Of a DNA stretch of 32,000 bases, positions 13,437 to 31,125 are shown in pieces. The stretch spans positions 780,001-812,000 of the forward strand of contig NZ_AP013028.1 of assembly GCF_000829315.1 (NCBI RefSeq), read 5' to 3'. A model generated the notes under the pieces. The model was not told where the DNA came from, searched no databases, and was given only the letters and a program-made list of their open reading frames with translations. The translations under genes and the position numbers were made by a program. Each line of letters starts with the position of its first letter. Position 1 is the first letter of the stretch. The stretch is from Wolbachia endosymbiont of Cimex lectularius. GTDB taxonomy: Bacteria; Pseudomonadota; Alphaproteobacteria; Rickettsiales; Anaplasmataceae.

Positions 13437-13688
13437 TTATATACTTTTCAAAAGATTCACTAGTTTATTCTGTAATTGGATCATTGAGTTACGCAATGTC
13501 ACCAGTGATAAGCCAGTTACTTGGGAAATAACATTGATAGAAATACCTAACTGTGCAAGTCCCAGATTGTGCTGAATGTCTATACTGCCTAAATTTTGAA
13601 GTGAAAATTTTAATAAACAGCAAATAAACAAGTTTATCAAAAGAGAGTTAAATGTTAGGGTTTGCAGCATTCTGGAAATTCTAGACAA
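13437..13688 (-). CDS. hypothetical small protein (doubtful)
   Basis: An 83-codon ORF with a TTG start, no RBS and no recognisable motif. Confidence 0.2.
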   Translation of the reverse strand: MSRISRMLQTLTFNSLLINLFICCLLKFSLQNLGSIDIQHNLGLAQLGISINVISQVTGLSLVTLRNSMIQLQNKLVNLLKSI

Positions 13689-14001
13689 TTTAAAATCAAC
13701 TTGGGATGGAGGAAGTTAGTGGCGGTTTAGACGTCACATACTCCTTCATCACAATGATAAAGAAGCTTACCTTTATCTCTGACGTATTTTAAAGGAATTT
13801 TGGGGTTATTGATGTCTTTACCACCAATATCATGCCATTTCTTTTCCCATGCAACATAATATGGCTCAAGGTCTTGCGGCGTTAATTTATATATTTCTTT
13901 CAGCTCTATTCCTTCATAAATAGCAAATATCCAATCCACTTTTCGGTATTTTGCAATTATTGTAGGATTCATATGATGATGAGTAGAAAAGTCTTTTGTA
14001 A

Positions 14002-14861
14002 GAACCTGTTTAAAATCTTGGAAATGTGAGGTAAAGTAAGCATAGATTAATAATGAGGTGTCTATGCAGAAAAGTTATCCAAGTAATATAAGTCAAGAGC
14101 AGTTTGAAAAAATCAGGCCAATTTTGGAGAGTAGCAAGCAGAAAACAAAACCAAGAAAACTTGATTTGTATGACGTATTTTGTGGGGTGTTGTACGTCTT
14201 AAAAAGTGGTTGTCAGTGGAGGATGTTACCAAAGGGTTTTCCAAGATGGGAAAGCGTATATTACTATTTTCGAGTGTGGAGTAAAAAGAATGGAGAAGAG
14301 CCAAGCTTGTTGGAATTAGTCTTAAAAAAAATTAGTTGGAGAGGTCCGTATCAGCAATGGTCGGAAAGAGAAAACTAGCTTTTGTATAATTGATTCTCAA
14401 AGCGTTAAAAACGCAGATACTGCTGAAAAAAAAAGGCTATGATGCAGGTAAAAAGATTTCAGGGATAAAGCGCCATATTGCAGTTGATACACAAGGTTTG
14501 CCACATGCAATTTATGTAACAACGGCAGAAGCAACTGACCGTAGCAGTGCTGTGAAAATGGTCGAAAATGCTAAAGCAAACCTCTCTGAAGTTAAAAACA
14601 TACTGGTTGATGCTGGCTACACAGGAGAAAATTTTGCAACACAAATAAAAGCTATCATTGGTGCGACTGTTGAAGTAATAAGCGAAGTGAGTTACACACT
14701 TTCGTCGTATTGCCAAAAAGATGGGTTGTTGAACGCTCTTTTGCCTGGTTAGAAAAGTGCAGGCGATTGTGGAAAAATTGCGAGCGGAAGCTCAACACTA
14801 GCTTACAGATGATAGTCCTCTCCTTCATTTCTCTCCTGTTACGAAGATTTTAAACAGGTTC
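14002..14861 (+). mobile_element. IS5-family insertion sequence, copy 1 (860 bp, carries a 1-bp deletion), TSD TAA
   Basis: Termini GAACCTGTTTAAAATCTT...AAGATTTTAAACAGGTTC, flanked by TAA (13999-14001 and 14862-14864). An A is missing near 14680 relative to the other copies. Confidence 0.9.
14058..14853 (+). pseudogene. IS5-family DDE transposase, degraded copy (extra frameshift in the orfB part)
   Basis: orfA spans 14058..14378. The orfB part diverges after ..GATVEVI ([10 protein letters not shown] versus [11 protein letters not shown] in the other copies). Confidence 0.85.
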
Positions 14862-15336
14862 TAAGAAGAGCATTTATTGATTTAAGCTCATATTCATTAC
14901 CATACTCATCAATAGCATCATTTCCTTCGCGTCCTGGAAGAATAGTGAGTCCAGTTAGTAGTAAGACTTGTAGGATTTTTCCACCGTTGTCCTGAAATAT
15001 ATCATTTATACCATGCTTAACAGCAAACTCTTGATGTTTCCGTATATGGGGAAATAGTTCTTCCAGAAGTTTTCTATCTTGATAAGTTCCCTCCGGGTTT
15101 AGAAGTGCAGTAGGTACGACACCGAGCGCATCTGCTATGCGCTCAATATTATCTATAGAGATATTTCGCTCACCACGTTCAACGGAGCCTATATATGTCC
15201 TGTGTAATTTGCATAAATCAGCAAGAGTTTCTTGGGAAAGTCCTTTTATATTTCTTAGCCTTCGTATATTCTGAGAAAGAAGTAACCGTAGAGGTTGCCT
15301 TTTTATTTTCATCATCTCTACAAGGTAATAGTTGAC

Positions 15337-15362
15337 AATTATAAGTCTACAGACTATAAGTA
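15337..15362 (-). promoter_or_regulatory. C-box-like operator (two units separated by TGTA), overlapping divergent promoters
   Basis: The minus strand reads TACTTATAGTC-TGTA-GACTTATAATT, 22-47 nt upstream of ATG 15315. It contains a minus-strand TATAAT (reverse complement of 15338-15343). A plus-strand TTGACA (15332-15337)-N17-TATAAG (15355-15360) runs across it. Confidence 0.55.
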
Positions 15363-15370
15363 TCTTTTGT

Positions 15371-16402
15371 ATGGTAACCGCATTGGAAAAATTTAAATTT
15401 AATAATAAACCCACATATACTACAGATATGGGAGCTGCGTACTGTGGAAACTCTCTTAACTTATTGCCTCAATTACCAGATAATAGCTTGGATCTCGTAA
15501 TAACCAGTCCACCGTTTGCTTTGCAAAGAAAAAAAGAATACGGAAATGAGTCCCAAGCGGAATATGTTGCATGGCTTAGTCAATTTGCAAAGTTAGTACA
15601 TAGCAAACTCAAAGATACTGGCAGTTTTGTACTTGATCTGAGTGGGGCTTATGAAAAAGGCGTGCCATCTAGAAGTTTATATAATTTTAGAGTGCTTGTG
15701 CATTTCTGTGACGATATAGGCTTCTTTCTTGCAGAAGATTTCTATTGGTATAATCCTTCTAAATTGCCAAGTCCAATTGAATGGGTAAATAAGAAAAAAA
15801 TCAGAGCAAAAGATTCTGTTAACACAGTATGGTGGTTCAGCAAAACTAAGTGGCCTAAAGCAGATGTCACAAAGGTGCTAGCGGAATACAGTGACCGCAT
15901 GAAAAAACTTATCGAGAACCCAAAGGCTTATTATACTCCAAAGGAACGGCCATCAGGGCACAATATTGGTAGTAGCTTTGGCAAAGATAATGGAGGAGCT
16001 ATTCCATCGAATCTTTTGCAGATTCCCAACTCAGAATCTAATAGCCAGTATCTTGCTGCATGTAAGAAACTAGGTATAAAACAGCATCCAGCTAGATTCC
16101 CTGCTAAATTACCTCAATTTTTTATCCGGTTTCTAACACAACCAGGAGATGTTGTTTTAGATATTTTTGCTGGTTCTAACACAACAGGTTTTGTGTGTGA
16201 GCAAGAAGACCGTTGCTGGCTAGCATTTGAAGAAAATAGAGAATACCTTGCTGCATCTGCTTTCAGGTTCTTAAAAAAAGAATGCTCAAAGGAAGAGTTA
16301 GAAACTATTTATCAACGCATTGTTCATGGTGAAGAGCAAGTATTAAAGGCTAAGCAGCCTATATTGGATCTTAAATTCACTCAGCAGTCATTAGTAGTTT
16401 AG
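15371..16402 (+). CDS. M.PvuII-like N4-cytosine DNA methyltransferase (beta class)
   Basis: [18 protein letters not shown] (SPPF catalytic motif) lies N-terminal to [13 protein letters not shown] (AdoMet motif). Long collinear blocks include [44 protein letters not shown] and AASAFRF. Confidence 0.9.
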
Positions 16403-16519
16403 AAGCAAACTTGTGCTCTTCGTTCATGGTTTTCCCGTTTTTAGCAATAACTTTTTATATAAGCATTTTTGTTGCTTGTTATCTAAGTGGAGAAAGTCAC
16501 CTCTCCCCACTCAACTTCA

Positions 16520-16553
16520 AAACCGGACTTGTGACTTTCACCACATCCGGCTT
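16520..16553 (-). ncRNA. group II intron catalytic domain V
   Basis: The minus strand reads AAGCCGGAUGUGGU-GAAA-GUCAC-AA-GUCCGGUUU. It has a 9-bp lower helix with the AGC triad and a G.U pair, a 2-nt bulge on the 3' strand, a 5-bp upper helix and a GNRA tetraloop, 34 nt in total. Confidence 0.85.
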
Positions 16554-16785
16554 CTCTCTAATTTGGTGTTTGTCATACATACTTCTCCATGTAATCAACA
16601 TTTCAAAGCTTGGTAAATTTATTTTTGTAGCTTAAATACGGCGTTTTCTATACTACTAGAGAGGTCGTATTCATTCATACCTAACACTTAATGTTGGCTC
16701 ATAACATATTAACCACTACTTACAACTTTACCCTCCAAATTACAGTGTCCACGTCAGCATATCCTAAACATTACTTTAGGCCTTA

Positions 16786-17646
16786 GAACCTGTTTAAAAT
16801 CTTCGTAACAGGAGAGAAATGAAGGAGAGGACTATCATCTGTAAGCTAGTGTTGAGCTTCCGCTCGCAATTTTTCCACAATCGCCTGCACTTTTCTAACC
16901 AGGCAAAAGAGCGTTCAACAACCCATCTTTTTGGCAATACGACGAAAGTGTGTAACTCACTTCGCTTTATTACTTCAACAGTCGCACCAATGATAGCTTT
17001 TATTTGTGTTGCAAAATTTTCTCCTGTGTAGCCAGCATCAACCAGTATGTTTTTAACTTCAGAGAGGTTTGCTTTAGCATTTTCGACCATTTTCACAGCA
17101 CTGCTACGGTCAGTTGCTTCTGCCGTTGTTACATAAATTGCATGTGGCAAACCTTGTGTATCAACTGCAATATGGCGCTTTATCCCTGAAATCTTTTTAC
17201 CTGCATCATAGCCTTTTTTTTTCAGCAGTATCTGCGTTTTTAACGCTTTGAGAATCAATTATACAAAAGCTAGTTTTCTCTTTCCGACCATTGCTGATAC
17301 GGACCTCTCCAACTAATTTTTTTTAAGACTAATTCCAACAAGCTTGGCTCTTCTCCATTCTTTTTACTCCACACTCGAAAATAGTAATATACGCTTTCCC
17401 ATCTTGGAAAACCCTTTGGTAACATCCTCCACTGACAACCACTTTTTAAGACGTACAACACCCCACAAAATACGTCATACAAATCAAGTTTTCTTGGTTT
17501 TGTTTTCTGCTTGCTACTCTCCAAAATTGGCCTGATTTTTTCAAACTGCTCTTGACTTATATTACTTGGATAACTTTTCTGCATAGACACCTCATTATTA
17601 ATCTATGCTTACTTTACCTCACATTTCCAAGATTTTAAACAGGTTC
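16786..17646 (-). mobile_element. IS5-family insertion sequence, copy 2 (861 bp), TSD TTA
   Basis: Same termini as the other copies, flanked by TTA (16783-16785 and 17647-17649). Confidence 0.9.
16794..17590 (-). CDS. IS5-family DDE transposase (orfA 17590..17270, orfB 17258..16794; full length needs two frame changes)
   Basis: orfA has an HTH-like N-terminus ending ..CQWRMLPKGFPRWESVYYYF. The DDE core IIDSQSVK is in the third frame. LVDAGY and VVERSFAWL are in orfB. Confidence 0.85.
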
Positions 17647-18135
17647 TTAGCTTTTTAGACAATCCCTCCAACATAAATGCTTGCGGCTGGCTACCTACTT
17701 ATTCCATAGGAATAAGAGCATATATGAGGTTACTCCGTTCCATGGTTTCGTTTCGCGTTAGACTTAGGTTTTTACTATTTGCCGGAAGCTGAGAACATCT
17801 ATAATCAAGAATAAATAATCTTGATTCCTCTTTTGCTTCATACCATTTTGGTCTATGCGTATCAACCTTGTTTCCATATTGGTACTAACGACAATTCAAA
17901 CATAAATTTCTCTCGTAACCATATCTAGCTCTGCTTGCAGGAATTTACGATAAGGTTTAGTATTACCTGCTTTTGTCTCATGCTTGCACCCCAGAGGTTG
18001 CCATTCTCTGAAATGTGAAACATACATTATCTCCGATGTCTAGAGAAGATGGAATTTAACCATCACAAAACCACGACTATTCGGATCACACATATATCTT
18101 TACCTCAACACTCTCCACATTAGCGTTAGTCACTG

Positions 18136-21160: not shown

Positions 21161-22021
21161 GAACCTGTTTAAAATCTTCGTAACAGGAGAGAAATAAAGG
21201 AGAGGACTATCATCTGTAAGCTAGTGTTGAGCTTCCGCTCGCAATTTTTCCACAATCGCCTGCACTTTTCTAACCAGGCAAAAGAGCGTTCAACAACCCA
21301 TCTTTTTGGCAATACGACGAAAGTGTGTAACTCACTTCGCTTTATTACTTCAACAGTCGCACCAATGATAGCTTTTATTTGTGTTGCAAAATTTTCTCCT
21401 GTGTAGCCAGCATCAACCAGTATGTTTTTAACTTCAGAGAGGTTTGCTTTAGCATTTTCGACCATTTTCACAGCACTGCTACGGTCAGTTGCTTCTGCCG
21501 TTGTTACATAAATTGCATGTGGCAAACCTTGTGTATCAACTGCAATATGGCGCTTTATCCCTGAAATCTTTTTACCTGCATCATAGCCTTTTTTTTTCAG
21601 CAGTATCTGCGTTTTTAACGCTTTGAGAATCAATTATACAAAAGCTAGTTTTCTCTTTCCGACCATTGCTGATACGGACCTCTCCAACTAATTTTTTTTA
21701 AGACTAATTCCAACAAGCTTGGCTCTTCTCCACTCTTTTTACTCCACACTCGAAAATAGTAATATACGCTTTCCCATCTTGGAAAACCCTTTGGTAACAT
21801 CCTCCACTGACAACCACTTTTTAAGACGTACAACACCCCACAAAATACGTCATACAAATCAAGTTTTCTTGGTTTTGTTTTCTGCTTGCTACTCTCCAAA
21901 ATTGGCCTGATTTTTTCAAACTGCTCTTGACTTATATTACTTGGATAACTTTTCTGCATAGACACCTCATTATTAATCTATGCTTACTTTACCTCACATT
22001 TCCAAGATTTTAAACAGGTTC
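21161..22021 (-). mobile_element. IS5-family insertion sequence, copy 3 (861 bp), TSD TAA
   Basis: Same termini as the other copies, flanked by TAA (21158-21160 and 22022-22024). Confidence 0.9.
21169..21965 (-). CDS. IS5-family DDE transposase (orfA 21965..21645, orfB 21633..21169; two frame changes needed)
   Basis: Identical to the other copies except for one substitution in orfA (KKSGEEP versus KKNGEEP). Confidence 0.85.
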
Positions 22022-24880: not shown

Positions 24881-25741
24881 GAACCTGTTTAAAATCTTGA
24901 AAATGTGAGGTAAAGTAAGCATAGATTAATAATGAGGTGTCTATGCAGAAAAGTTATCCAAGTAATATAAGTCAAGAGCAGTTTGAAAAAATCAGGCCAA
25001 TTTTGGAGAGTAGCAAGCAGAAAACAAAACCAAGAAAACTTGATTTGTATGACGTATTTTGTGGGGTGTTGTACGTCTTAAAAAGTGGTTGTCAGTGGAG
25101 GATGTTACCAAAGGGTTTTCCAAGATGGGAAAGCGTATATTACTATTTTCGAGTGTGGAGTAAAAAGAATGGAGAAGAGCCAAGCTTGTTGGAATTAGTC
25201 TTAAAAAAAATTAGTTGGAGAGGTCCGTATCAGCAATGGTCGGAAAGAGAAAACTAGCTTTTGTATAATTGATTCTCAAAGCGTTAAAAACGCAGATACT
25301 GCTGAAAAAAAAAGGCTATGATGCAGGTAAAAAGATTTCAGGGATAAAGCGCCATATTGCAGTTGATACACAAGGTTTGCCACATGCAATTTATGTAACA
25401 ACGGCAGAAGCAACTGACCGTAGCAGTGCTGTGAAAATGGTCGAAAATGCTAAAGCAAACCTCTCTGAAGTTAAAAACATACTGGTTGATGCTGGCTACA
25501 CAGGAGAAAATTTTGCAACACAAATAAAAGCTATCATTGGTGCGACTGTTGAAGTAATAAAGCGAAGTGAGTTACACACTTTCGTCGTACTGCCAAAAAG
25601 ATGGGTTGTTGAACGCTCTTTTGCCTGGTTAGAAAAGTGCAGGCGATTGTGGAAAAATTGCGAGCGGAAGCTCAACACTAGCTTACAGATGATAGTCCTC
25701 TCCTTCATTTCTCTCCTGTTACGAAGATTTTAAACAGGTTC
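24881..25741 (+). mobile_element. IS5-family insertion sequence, copy 4 (861 bp), TSD TTA
   Basis: Same termini as the other copies, flanked by TTA (24878-24880 and 25742-25744). Confidence 0.9.
24937..25733 (+). CDS. IS5-family DDE transposase (orfA 24937..25257, orfB 25269..25733; two frame changes needed)
   Basis: Frame 1 (orfA) runs to the A8 run at 25203-25210. Frame 2 encodes LVGEVRISNGRKEKTSFCIIDSQSVKNADTAEKK and runs to the A9 run at 25305-25313. Frame 0 encodes [33 protein letters not shown]. Confidence 0.85.
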
Positions 25742-30264: not shown

Positions 30265-31125
30265 GAACCTGTTTAAAATCTTCGTAACAGGAGAGAAATG
30301 AAGGAGAGGACTATCATCTGTAAGCTAGTGTTGAGCTTCCGCTCGCAATTTTTCCACAATCGCCTGCACTTTTCTAACCAGGCAAAAGAGCGTTCAACAA
30401 CCCATCTTTTTGGCAATACGACGAAAGTGTGTAACTCACTTCGCTTTATTACTTCAACAGTCGCACCAATGATAGCTTTTATTTGTGTTGCAAAATTTTC
30501 TCCTGTGTAGCCAGCATCAACCAGTATGTTTTTAACTTCAGAGAGGTTTGCTTTAGCATTTTCGACCATTTTCACAGTACTGCTACGGTCAGTTGCTTCT
30601 GCCGTTGTTACATAAATTGCATGTGGCAAACCTTGTGTATCAACTGCAATATGGCGCTTTATCCCTGAAATCTTTTTACCTGCATCATAGCCTTTTTTTT
30701 TCAGCAGTATCTGCGTTTTTAACGCTTTGAGAATCAATTATACAAAAGCTAGTTTTCTCTTTCCGACCATTGCTGATACGGACCTCTCCAACTAATTTTT
30801 TTTAAGACTAATTCCAACAAGCTTGGCTCTTCTCCATTCTTTTTACTCCACACTCGAAAATAGTAATATACGCTTTCCCATCTTGGAAAACCCTTTGGTA
30901 ACATCCTCCACTGACAACCACTTTTTAAGACGTACAACACCCCACAAAATACGTCATACAAATCAAGTTTTCTTGGTTTTGTTTTCTGCTTGCTACTCTC
31001 CAAAATTGGCCTGATTTTTTCAAACTGCTCTTGACTTATATTACTTGGATAACTTTTCTGCATAGACACCTCATTATTAATCTATGCTTACTTTACCTCA
31101 CATTTCCAAGATTTTAAACAGGTTC
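30265..31125 (-). mobile_element. IS5-family insertion sequence, copy 5 (861 bp), flanks TAA and TTA do not match
   Basis: Same termini as the other copies. TAA lies at 30262-30264, but TTA lies at 31126-31128. Confidence 0.9.
30273..31069 (-). CDS. IS5-family DDE transposase (orfA 31069..30749, orfB 30737..30273; two frame changes needed)
   Basis: Identical to the other copies except for one substitution in orfB (RSSTVKM versus RSSAVKM). Confidence 0.85.

Follow-up and report, generated by a model that had tools for sequence, protein, structure and literature searches.

An IS5-interrupted fusion of controller and PvuII-like endonuclease beside an intact methyltransferase gene in Wolbachia of Cimex lectularius

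The window analysed here, a 32,000-nucleotide stretch of DNA from the Wolbachia endosymbiont of Cimex lectularius (wCle), consists for the most part of ordinary Wolbachia chromosome genes, among them those for SecF, YidC, NusB, RibH, CcmF, UbiD and an ankyrin protein. Near its middle lie two divergent genes whose products resemble the components of the PvuII restriction-modification (R-M) system (Table 1). The first encodes an N4-cytosine DNA methyltransferase (M) that matches the Pfam family N6_N4_Mtase with an E value of 3e-43 and aligns with its relatives over the full length and without disruptions, at 95% identity to the M of another Wolbachia (L004), 79% to that of a metagenomic relative (L005) and 67% to M.PvuII. 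The second, termed CR here, joins a controller (C) domain to a restriction endonuclease (R) domain. It lies in the minus-strand open reading frame (ORF) at 14839-15414 and starts at ATG 15315, with another ATG at 15312. A 55-bp gap separates the M and CR start codons, and it is in this gap that the putative operators, or C-boxes, are found.

Table 1. Coordinates of the features of the M and CR locus of wCle, as positions in the window.
Feature	Position	Strand	Remarks
3' fragment of CR gene, remainder of codon 151 through aa 241 and stop	13727..14001	-	carries His158-160
TAA target-site duplication, left copy	13999..14001	.	right copy 14862-14864
IS5-family insertion sequence (IS), 860 bp, inside CR gene	14002..14861	+	splits codon 151/152; repeat analysis, Pfam
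5' fragment of fused CR gene	14865..15315	-	codons 1-150 and first base of codon 151
R.PvuII-like domain, N-terminal part, aa 77-150/151	14865..15087	-	long N-terminal helix and D133, E143, K145
Linker N-P-E-G, aa 73-76, last C helix to first R helix	15088..15099	-	AF2 model, alignment
GGAGGG, putative relic Shine-Dalgarno of a once separate R gene	15089..15094	-	alignment to unfused relatives
C domain, five-helix XRE-type HTH, aa 9-72	15100..15291	-	Pfam, PDB matches, AF2
Putative C-boxes (operators OL and OR)	15337..15362	-	TACT-TAT-AGTC-TGTA-GACT-TAT-AATT
M.PvuII-like N4-cytosine DNA methyltransferase gene, divergent	15371..16402	+	intact, 343 aa from ATG 15371
Second copy of the 860-bp IS, inverted	16786..17646	-	own TTA duplication 16783-16785 and 17647-17649

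As it stands in wCle, the CR frame runs into an insertion sequence, departs from its homology to PvuII and ends after 7 more codons at a stop at 14839-14841, giving the annotated product of 158 aa; a database protein from the Wolbachia endosymbiont of Cimex lectularius (P0053, 158 aa) is 100% identical to this truncated ORF. When the IS and one TAA are removed, 14865-15315 joins 13727-14001 in a 241-aa ORF that stops at 13727-13729 and aligns with R.PvuII through the last residue of the latter. The inserted element displays all the hallmarks of the IS5 family, namely terminal inverted repeats (starting GAACCTGTTTAAAATCTT), a 3-bp TNA duplication and a DDE transposase spread over two ORFs, in which Pfam recognises DUF4096 and DDE_Tnp_1 (IS4/IS5 type). 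It may belong to one of the subgroups of that family, for instance IS1031 or IS427. The 860-bp element is present at least five times in the 32 kb, at 14002-14861, 16786-17646, ~21169-21965, ~24937-25733 and ~30273-31069. The copy in CR differs from that at 16786-17646 by one base, an A absent near 14679 that shifts the frame of transposase ORF2 (120 aa as against 154 aa), and the insertion into CR is thus very recent relative to the divergence of the strains. A composite transposon, in which the two inverted copies would have carried M and the 5' part of CR between them, was considered and discarded because the 3 bp that flank each copy match each other and are particular to it; the element at 16786-17646 is an independent insertion. 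With codon 151/152 split, the wCle gene is not intact in the manner of the C-REase fusions discussed below. It is a pseudogene, which, being divided by the IS, cannot give a full-length fusion protein or an active enzyme.

The restored frame reveals the architecture of the gene before its interruption. The sequence-only reading had placed C and R in one frame from ATG 15315 with only CTG 15066-15064 available between them, and both a codon-by-codon check and the Pfam domains agree: zero stops lie between the C and R domains of the frame, and this CTG, codon 84, is the only in-frame ATG, GTG, TTG or CTG between codons 2 and 161. Pfam assigns aa 17-68 to HTH_3 (E 4e-14, with HTH_31 matched too) and aa 80-232 of the restored protein to Endonuc-PvuII (E 2.5e-67). 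A sequence search of the PDB matched C.AhdI and C.BclI at E ~1e-13 and R.PvuII at E ~1e-70, with residue 5 of R.PvuII paired with residue 80 of the wCle protein. The C domain shares 63% identity with C.PvuII and 67% with the stand-alone C protein of L005, and the recognition-helix motif HRTY at aa 38-41 assigns it to the C.PvuII group. In the R domain, the catalytic D58, E68 and K70 of PvuII correspond to D133, E143 and K145, and the recognition triplet His83-85 to H158-160; the catalytic and His-triplet columns are invariant in the protein alignment. An AF2 model built with 30 fused homologues as input (mean pLDDT 87.4) predicts two folded domains, with C-domain helices at 9-23, 28-35, 39-46, 54-64 and 68-72 and, after a 4-residue linker, the long N-terminal helix of the nuclease at aa 77-100; the pLDDT falls to 71 in the block of aa 71-80. 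It had been remarked that 241 aa equals the 84 aa of C.PvuII plus the 157 aa of R.PvuII. The restored length stands, and the equality is a coincidence, the C part being shorter and the R part carrying a 9-aa tail.

The tail itself varies. The C-termini differ among Wolbachia strains (CDV, CM, CDRH and YCF), and just past the CR stop, in 13700-13729, another frame reads KPPLTS, which matches the tail …PEPPLTS of the unfused relatives described below; the Wolbachia proteins therefore seem to have lost that tail through a small frame change.

The closest classical parallel is the PvuII system of Proteus vulgaris plasmid pPvu1, in which M is likewise divergent from C, followed by R. The HRTY helix is common to both, the R proteins share 66-70% identity and every catalytic and recognition residue, the M proteins share 67% identity, and the C-box sequences are nearly identical (ACTCATAGTCTGTAGATTCAAAGTC vs ACTTATAGTCTGTAGACTTATAATT). 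In PvuII, however, C.PvuII (84 aa) and R.PvuII (157 aa) are separate proteins, encoded in different frames by genes with a 23-bp overlap, whereas wCle has a single frame and a junction with neither stop nor start. The wCle C-boxes match 13/16 positions of the consensus GACT-N3-AGTC-N4-GACT-N3-AGTC and align with conserved boxes in Wolbachia L002 and L004, in the unfused L005 and in pPvu1. The C-box consensus has been published, and C proteins with an HRTY helix typically go with a TGTA spacer (PMC2175313); wCle has both the spacer and the motif. Half-box 2B is degenerate in wCle (AATT vs AGTC), so that repression at these operators may be weak. A scan of 13600-16600 for sigma-70 promoters and terminators returned 8 sites against 8.8 expected.

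A single polypeptide combining the two proteins is not without precedent. The sequence-only reading knew of no characterised C::R fusion, but Liang & Blumenthal (2013; BMC Evol Biol 13:218, PMC3850674) described five C-REase fusions among R.PvuII orthologues: three from cyanobacteria with a linker of ~25 aa, Mru1279I from Meiothermus and NsoJS138I from Niabella. CR.NsoJS138I was tested biochemically; it is produced in no form other than the full-length protein, cleaves with PvuII specificity and activates its own C-box promoter, and it is the only one for which CAGCTG cleavage and C-box-dependent activation by one polypeptide have been demonstrated (PMC3850674). The result is cited in a 2025 review. 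Like wCle, CR.NsoJS138I (Niabella soli) and CR.Mru1279I (Meiothermus ruber) carry an N-terminal C.PvuII-like HTH and a C-terminal R.PvuII-like domain in one ORF, with a very short linker, a divergent M, upstream C-boxes and no internal start, and a Meiothermus fusion (P0118) aligns with the wCle protein from end to end at 59-60% identity. They differ in that the Wolbachia clade lies outside the five systems of 2013 and the wCle copy is IS-disrupted. The cyanobacterial Asp90I, Gsp7428I and Oni7112I combine the two domains in this order too (PMC3850674), but with a Glu/Thr/Pro-rich linker of ~25 aa and an extra, distant C-box, as against the 4-residue linker and standard box spacing of wCle. Judged by the linker of the model, wCle CR belongs to the short-linker class, like Nso and Mru. 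As each chain carries two dimerising modules, simultaneous, competitive or concatemeric interactions have been discussed, and it was deemed unlikely that, in the short-linker class, a single pair of chains dimerises through both modules at once (PMC3850674). The notion that the fusion couples operator binding to the nuclease is moot in wCle itself because the gene is split by the IS.

With its single frame, HRTY motif and C-boxes, PvuII residues and adjacent divergent M, wCle CR is an IS-inactivated member of this known class of C-REase fusions in a decaying PvuII-type R-M module, and this type of fusion is not new: it was characterised in 2013 and is widespread. For the region as a whole we regard it as very probable that it represents a PvuII-type Type IIP R-M module with a divergent M, C-box operators and a naturally fused CR of the CR.NsoJS138I kind, the last of which was later inactivated by an IS.

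Two ways in which the fusion might be spurious can be judged from other Wolbachia. One is that a sequencing or assembly error hides a stop and a start between separate C and R genes, a possibility that the sequence-only reading had itself raised. The in-frame junction recurs, however, in the separate Wolbachia assemblies L002, L003, L004 and L011, the truncated wCle ORF is present on 9 contigs, and more than 100 protein clusters and ~60 species genomes have fused ORFs of comparable length; an artefact is practically out of the question. The other is that the fusion arose as a by-product of pseudogene decay in wCle, the IS having killed R and a deletion having joined the frames thereafter. That the wCle gene is a pseudogene in a strain rich in IS elements would fit such a history, but the Wolbachia of Atemnus politus (wApol) has the identical junction within an undisrupted ORF of 239 aa, and the SecF/aspartic-protease/YidC site of this ORF is that of the wCle gene. 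Intact orthologues with HTH and PvuII domains (237-239 aa, 88-95% identity) are found in Wolbachia supergroups A, B and F (F-like), and the IS, one base from its twin, is very recent compared with the divergence of the strains. Moreover, pairwise comparison of three Wolbachia genes gave dN/dS values of 0.24-0.26 overall and 0.15-0.54 across both domains; being low overall and in each domain, they show that the fused ORF has been under purifying selection in both halves. An origin by decay is hardly credible, and both a sequencing error and decay after inactivation are excluded as the source of the fusion. In one supergroup B strain CR is located at another site, with M intact. A literature search on a PvuII-like R-M system in Wolbachia returned nothing relevant.

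In wApol, whose CR (L002 4001-4720) is the closest of the intact relatives of the wCle gene, the adjacent M (L002 2993-3933) was called as two ORFs of 186 and 134 aa. This is the reverse of the state of wCle and would be odd for an active system; it could mean that the R part is inactive or that M is broken in this R-M module, or else reflect a frameshift or errors in a draft assembly.

The junction bears a trace of how the fusion may have come about. The sequence-only reading had located a GGAGGG within the linker codons P-E-G (15094-15089, minus strand), a position that we confirm, and had suggested that it is the relic ribosome-binding site (RBS) of a once separate R gene. The hexamer is rare, occurring 8 times in the window against 4.0 expected. 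The most informative comparison can be made with the closest unfused relatives (L005, L008, L009 and L010), in which C has 76-77 aa and R 175-176 aa with a longer C-terminal tail (…APEPPLTS). They share with wCle the same C-boxes, a 79%-identical M, the closest R (80-84%) and a junction that is homologous base for base. In the columns of the wCle GGAGGG these relatives have GAGGAGGAG, GGGGGAG or GAGGGGGG, followed by ATGA or TAATG. Their C gene ends …GAG GAG GAG TAA or …GAG GGG GGC AAA TGA, and the start of R overlaps the stop of C in a TAATG or an ATGA; the Shine-Dalgarno of R is thus provided by the G-rich codons with which C ends. In the DNA alignment, CCGGAGGGA of wCle and CCTGAGAGA of wApol align to that Shine-Dalgarno. 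Where the unfused relatives keep the ATGA or TAATG overlap, wCle is 8 nt shorter, and in wCle and wApol alike the 8-nt gap falls right after the G-rich stretch, exactly over the overlap of stop and start; 8 nt is the length that puts R into the frame of C. A protein alignment had at first placed GGAGGG on the old start-codon position, which would have spoken against a relic RBS; the gap right after GGAGGG in the DNA alignment disposed of this placement. Because GGAGGG is the positional counterpart of the Shine-Dalgarno that precedes R in the closest unfused relatives, the relic-RBS reading is reasonable and supported. Wolbachia of supergroups A and B are without 17 nt at the junction, and there the G-rich stretch is gone entirely. 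Since GGAGGG is not conserved in other Wolbachia and lies 22 nt from the only CTG, we argue from these alignments that it has no present function.

This bears on a further alternative, already foreseen in the sequence-only reading, that the endonuclease is translated alone from CTG 15066 by way of GGAGGG and that the fusion protein is minor or irrelevant. A strong Shine-Dalgarno-like hexamer is indeed present within the linker, and wApol and wLim retain the CTG codon. Shine-Dalgarno sequences usually lie 5-9 nt from the start codon, a range that the 22 nt found here far exceed. The Shine-Dalgarno-like sequence is also degenerate in wApol (CCTGAGAGA) and deleted in the supergroup A/B strains, and in only 15/112 fused clusters does a Met occur anywhere from the HTH to the FQDNGG motif. 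The western blots of CR.NsoJS138I show full-length protein only, which is active in both roles (PMC3850674), and in wCle the matter is moot, the R part being split by the IS. Internal initiation therefore appears very unlikely. Programmed frameshifting that would release free C was likewise set aside, there being no slippery motif and the analogous test of NsoJS138I having been negative (PMC3850674); at the wCle junction a +1-frame TAA occurs at CTTCTAAAC and a -1-frame TAG 10 codons further on.

The sequence-only reading had proposed a search for HTH-PvuII fusions and their phyletic spread, and they proved to occur in more than 100 protein clusters and roughly ten phyla. A search against 5.8 billion proteins gave 4,834 matches, in which the Wolbachia proteins are followed by more than 100 clusters whose members are 220-262 aa long, show both Pfam domains and come from Pyrinomonadaceae, Planctomycetaceae, Chryseobacterium, Meiothermus and many metagenomes. 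Of the 120 best protein clusters, more than 110 are fused. The spacing of the motifs marks at least 112 of 121 sequences as fused, with a tightly bounded distance between HTH and nuclease; a Met between the HTH and FQDNGG is found in only 15 of the 112 fused clusters. Fused genes also occur on Acinetobacter plasmids, where they are annotated 'helix-turn-helix domain-containing protein'. A scan of one genome per species returned 487 loci encoding relatives, and in the best 80 of these, for which the state of fusion was read, 57 pass a strict single-frame test and ~5 more fail only the motif regular expression (~60 in total). The fused loci come from Acidobacteriota, Bacteroidota, Verrucomicrobiota, Planctomycetota, Gemmatimonadota, Chlorobiota, Chloroflexota, Spirochaetota, Pseudomonadota and others. 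When the R domain alone served as query, in an unbiased search of 50%-identity representatives that gave 373 matches, an N-terminal HTH was present in ~8 of ~53 full-length clusters.

The remainder of the best 80 of the 487 loci are unfused, and in some of them C and R share a frame. Seven such loci (L017, L018, L021, L024, L032, L037 and L056) have one stop followed by an ATG within 0-3 codons; the junction of L017, for instance, reads …LLEE*MGSS…. As only a stop codon and a nearby ATG separate the two genes in same-frame loci of this kind, one point mutation could suffice to turn the unfused form into the fused one or back.

The Wolbachia R domain is 80-84% identical to the four unfused metagenomic proteins and at most 77% to any other fused protein. 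That it is closer to the unfused than to the other fused proteins suggests that the Wolbachia fusion was a separate event. A neighbour-joining (NJ) tree, a rough guide given its very short internal branches and lack of bootstrap, groups Wolbachia with the unfused relatives and interleaves fused and unfused proteins. We infer that the 8-nt event was a deletion that made the fusion rather than an insertion that made a fission. The wCle junction may be the fossil of an independent fusion of C and R, made by an 8-bp deletion across ATGA that turned a Shine-Dalgarno into linker codons. More broadly, fused CR may be a dominant architecture of the PvuII family, interconverting repeatedly with the unfused one through tiny indels or single stop-codon changes in some ten phyla, even in obligate endosymbionts; we consider this picture, the fossil junction included, about evenly balanced between right and wrong. 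If it is true, recurrent interconversion would imply recurrent selection for coupling the regulator and the nuclease physically.

We propose the following history for the wCle locus. The ancestor most likely resembled the closest unfused relatives, and an 8-bp deletion took out the overlapping C stop and R start (ATGA), which would have left the R-gene Shine-Dalgarno behind as the codons P-E-G. In the intact relatives one polypeptide of ~27 kDa would be expected to fill two roles, with no separate R protein needed: by homology to PvuII and NsoJS138I, the N-terminal HTH would bind the C-boxes and autoregulate its own promoter, and the C-terminal PvuII domain would cut CAGCTG. Avoidance of CAGCTG was not seen in the window (5 sites vs 6.3 expected), which speaks neither for nor against restriction pressure in the past. 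Later, and recently, an IS5-family insertion at codon 151/152 inactivated the wCle gene, leaving an intact and now orphan methyltransferase gene, the operators and the truncated 158-aa ORF, C-R'.

It could be asked whether C-R' has been kept as a transcription factor at the C-boxes, for example in tuning the orphan methyltransferase. Its start codon and entire HTH domain are undamaged, as are the C-boxes and the M gene, and NCBI annotates the 158-aa ORF as a protein, which retains the HTH, the N-terminal dimerisation helix and the catalytic motif of R and is without the DNA-recognition half. The IS is recent, however, so that intactness may mean only that there has been too little time for decay, and the C protein of PvuII acts chiefly on the CR promoter, not on M (PMC2175313). 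We consider a retained regulatory role unlikely, and prefer the history proposed above, in which C-R' is what the IS left of an inactivated fusion.

Since C-REase fusions of the PvuII family have already been described, biochemically validated and taken up in reviews, the wCle case as such carries little weight for the field. Beyond the 2013 paper, the fused architecture is far commoner and wider than the five reported cases, and the comparison of junctions offers a concrete one-step mutational route between unfused and fused states and also explains the Shine-Dalgarno-like sequence in the linker. Wolbachia strains carry a PvuII-type module, of which the wCle copy has decayed to an orphan methyltransferase gene and an IS-split CR pseudogene; this state matters for the annotation of the genome and for any m4C methylome of wCle.

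Some further arrangements of PvuII-like nucleases emerged from the searches. P0007 (L091 1813-2961; 382 aa) consists of two R.PvuII-like domains in tandem, with 58% identity between them, and is thus a naturally occurring 'single-chain' PvuII, similar to the engineered scPvuII (PDB 3KSK). On its 4.2-kb contig no methyltransferase or C gene adjoins it, the neighbours being ThiC and adenosine deaminase. Other N-terminal partners of the nuclease are a TIR domain (P0171) and a PQ-loop membrane segment (P0125), and four proteins of 300-365 aa (P0215, P0217, P0240 and P0259) have a region of ~90 aa N-terminal to the PvuII-like domain. The closest unfused C/R/M module (L005-L007) is embedded in a cluster resembling gene-transfer agents and phage tails (DUF2460, Phage_BR0599, tape-measure and GTA_TIM), and in the wCle window a DUF2460 gene lies at 935-1600 on the minus strand, ~12 kb from the R-M remnant.
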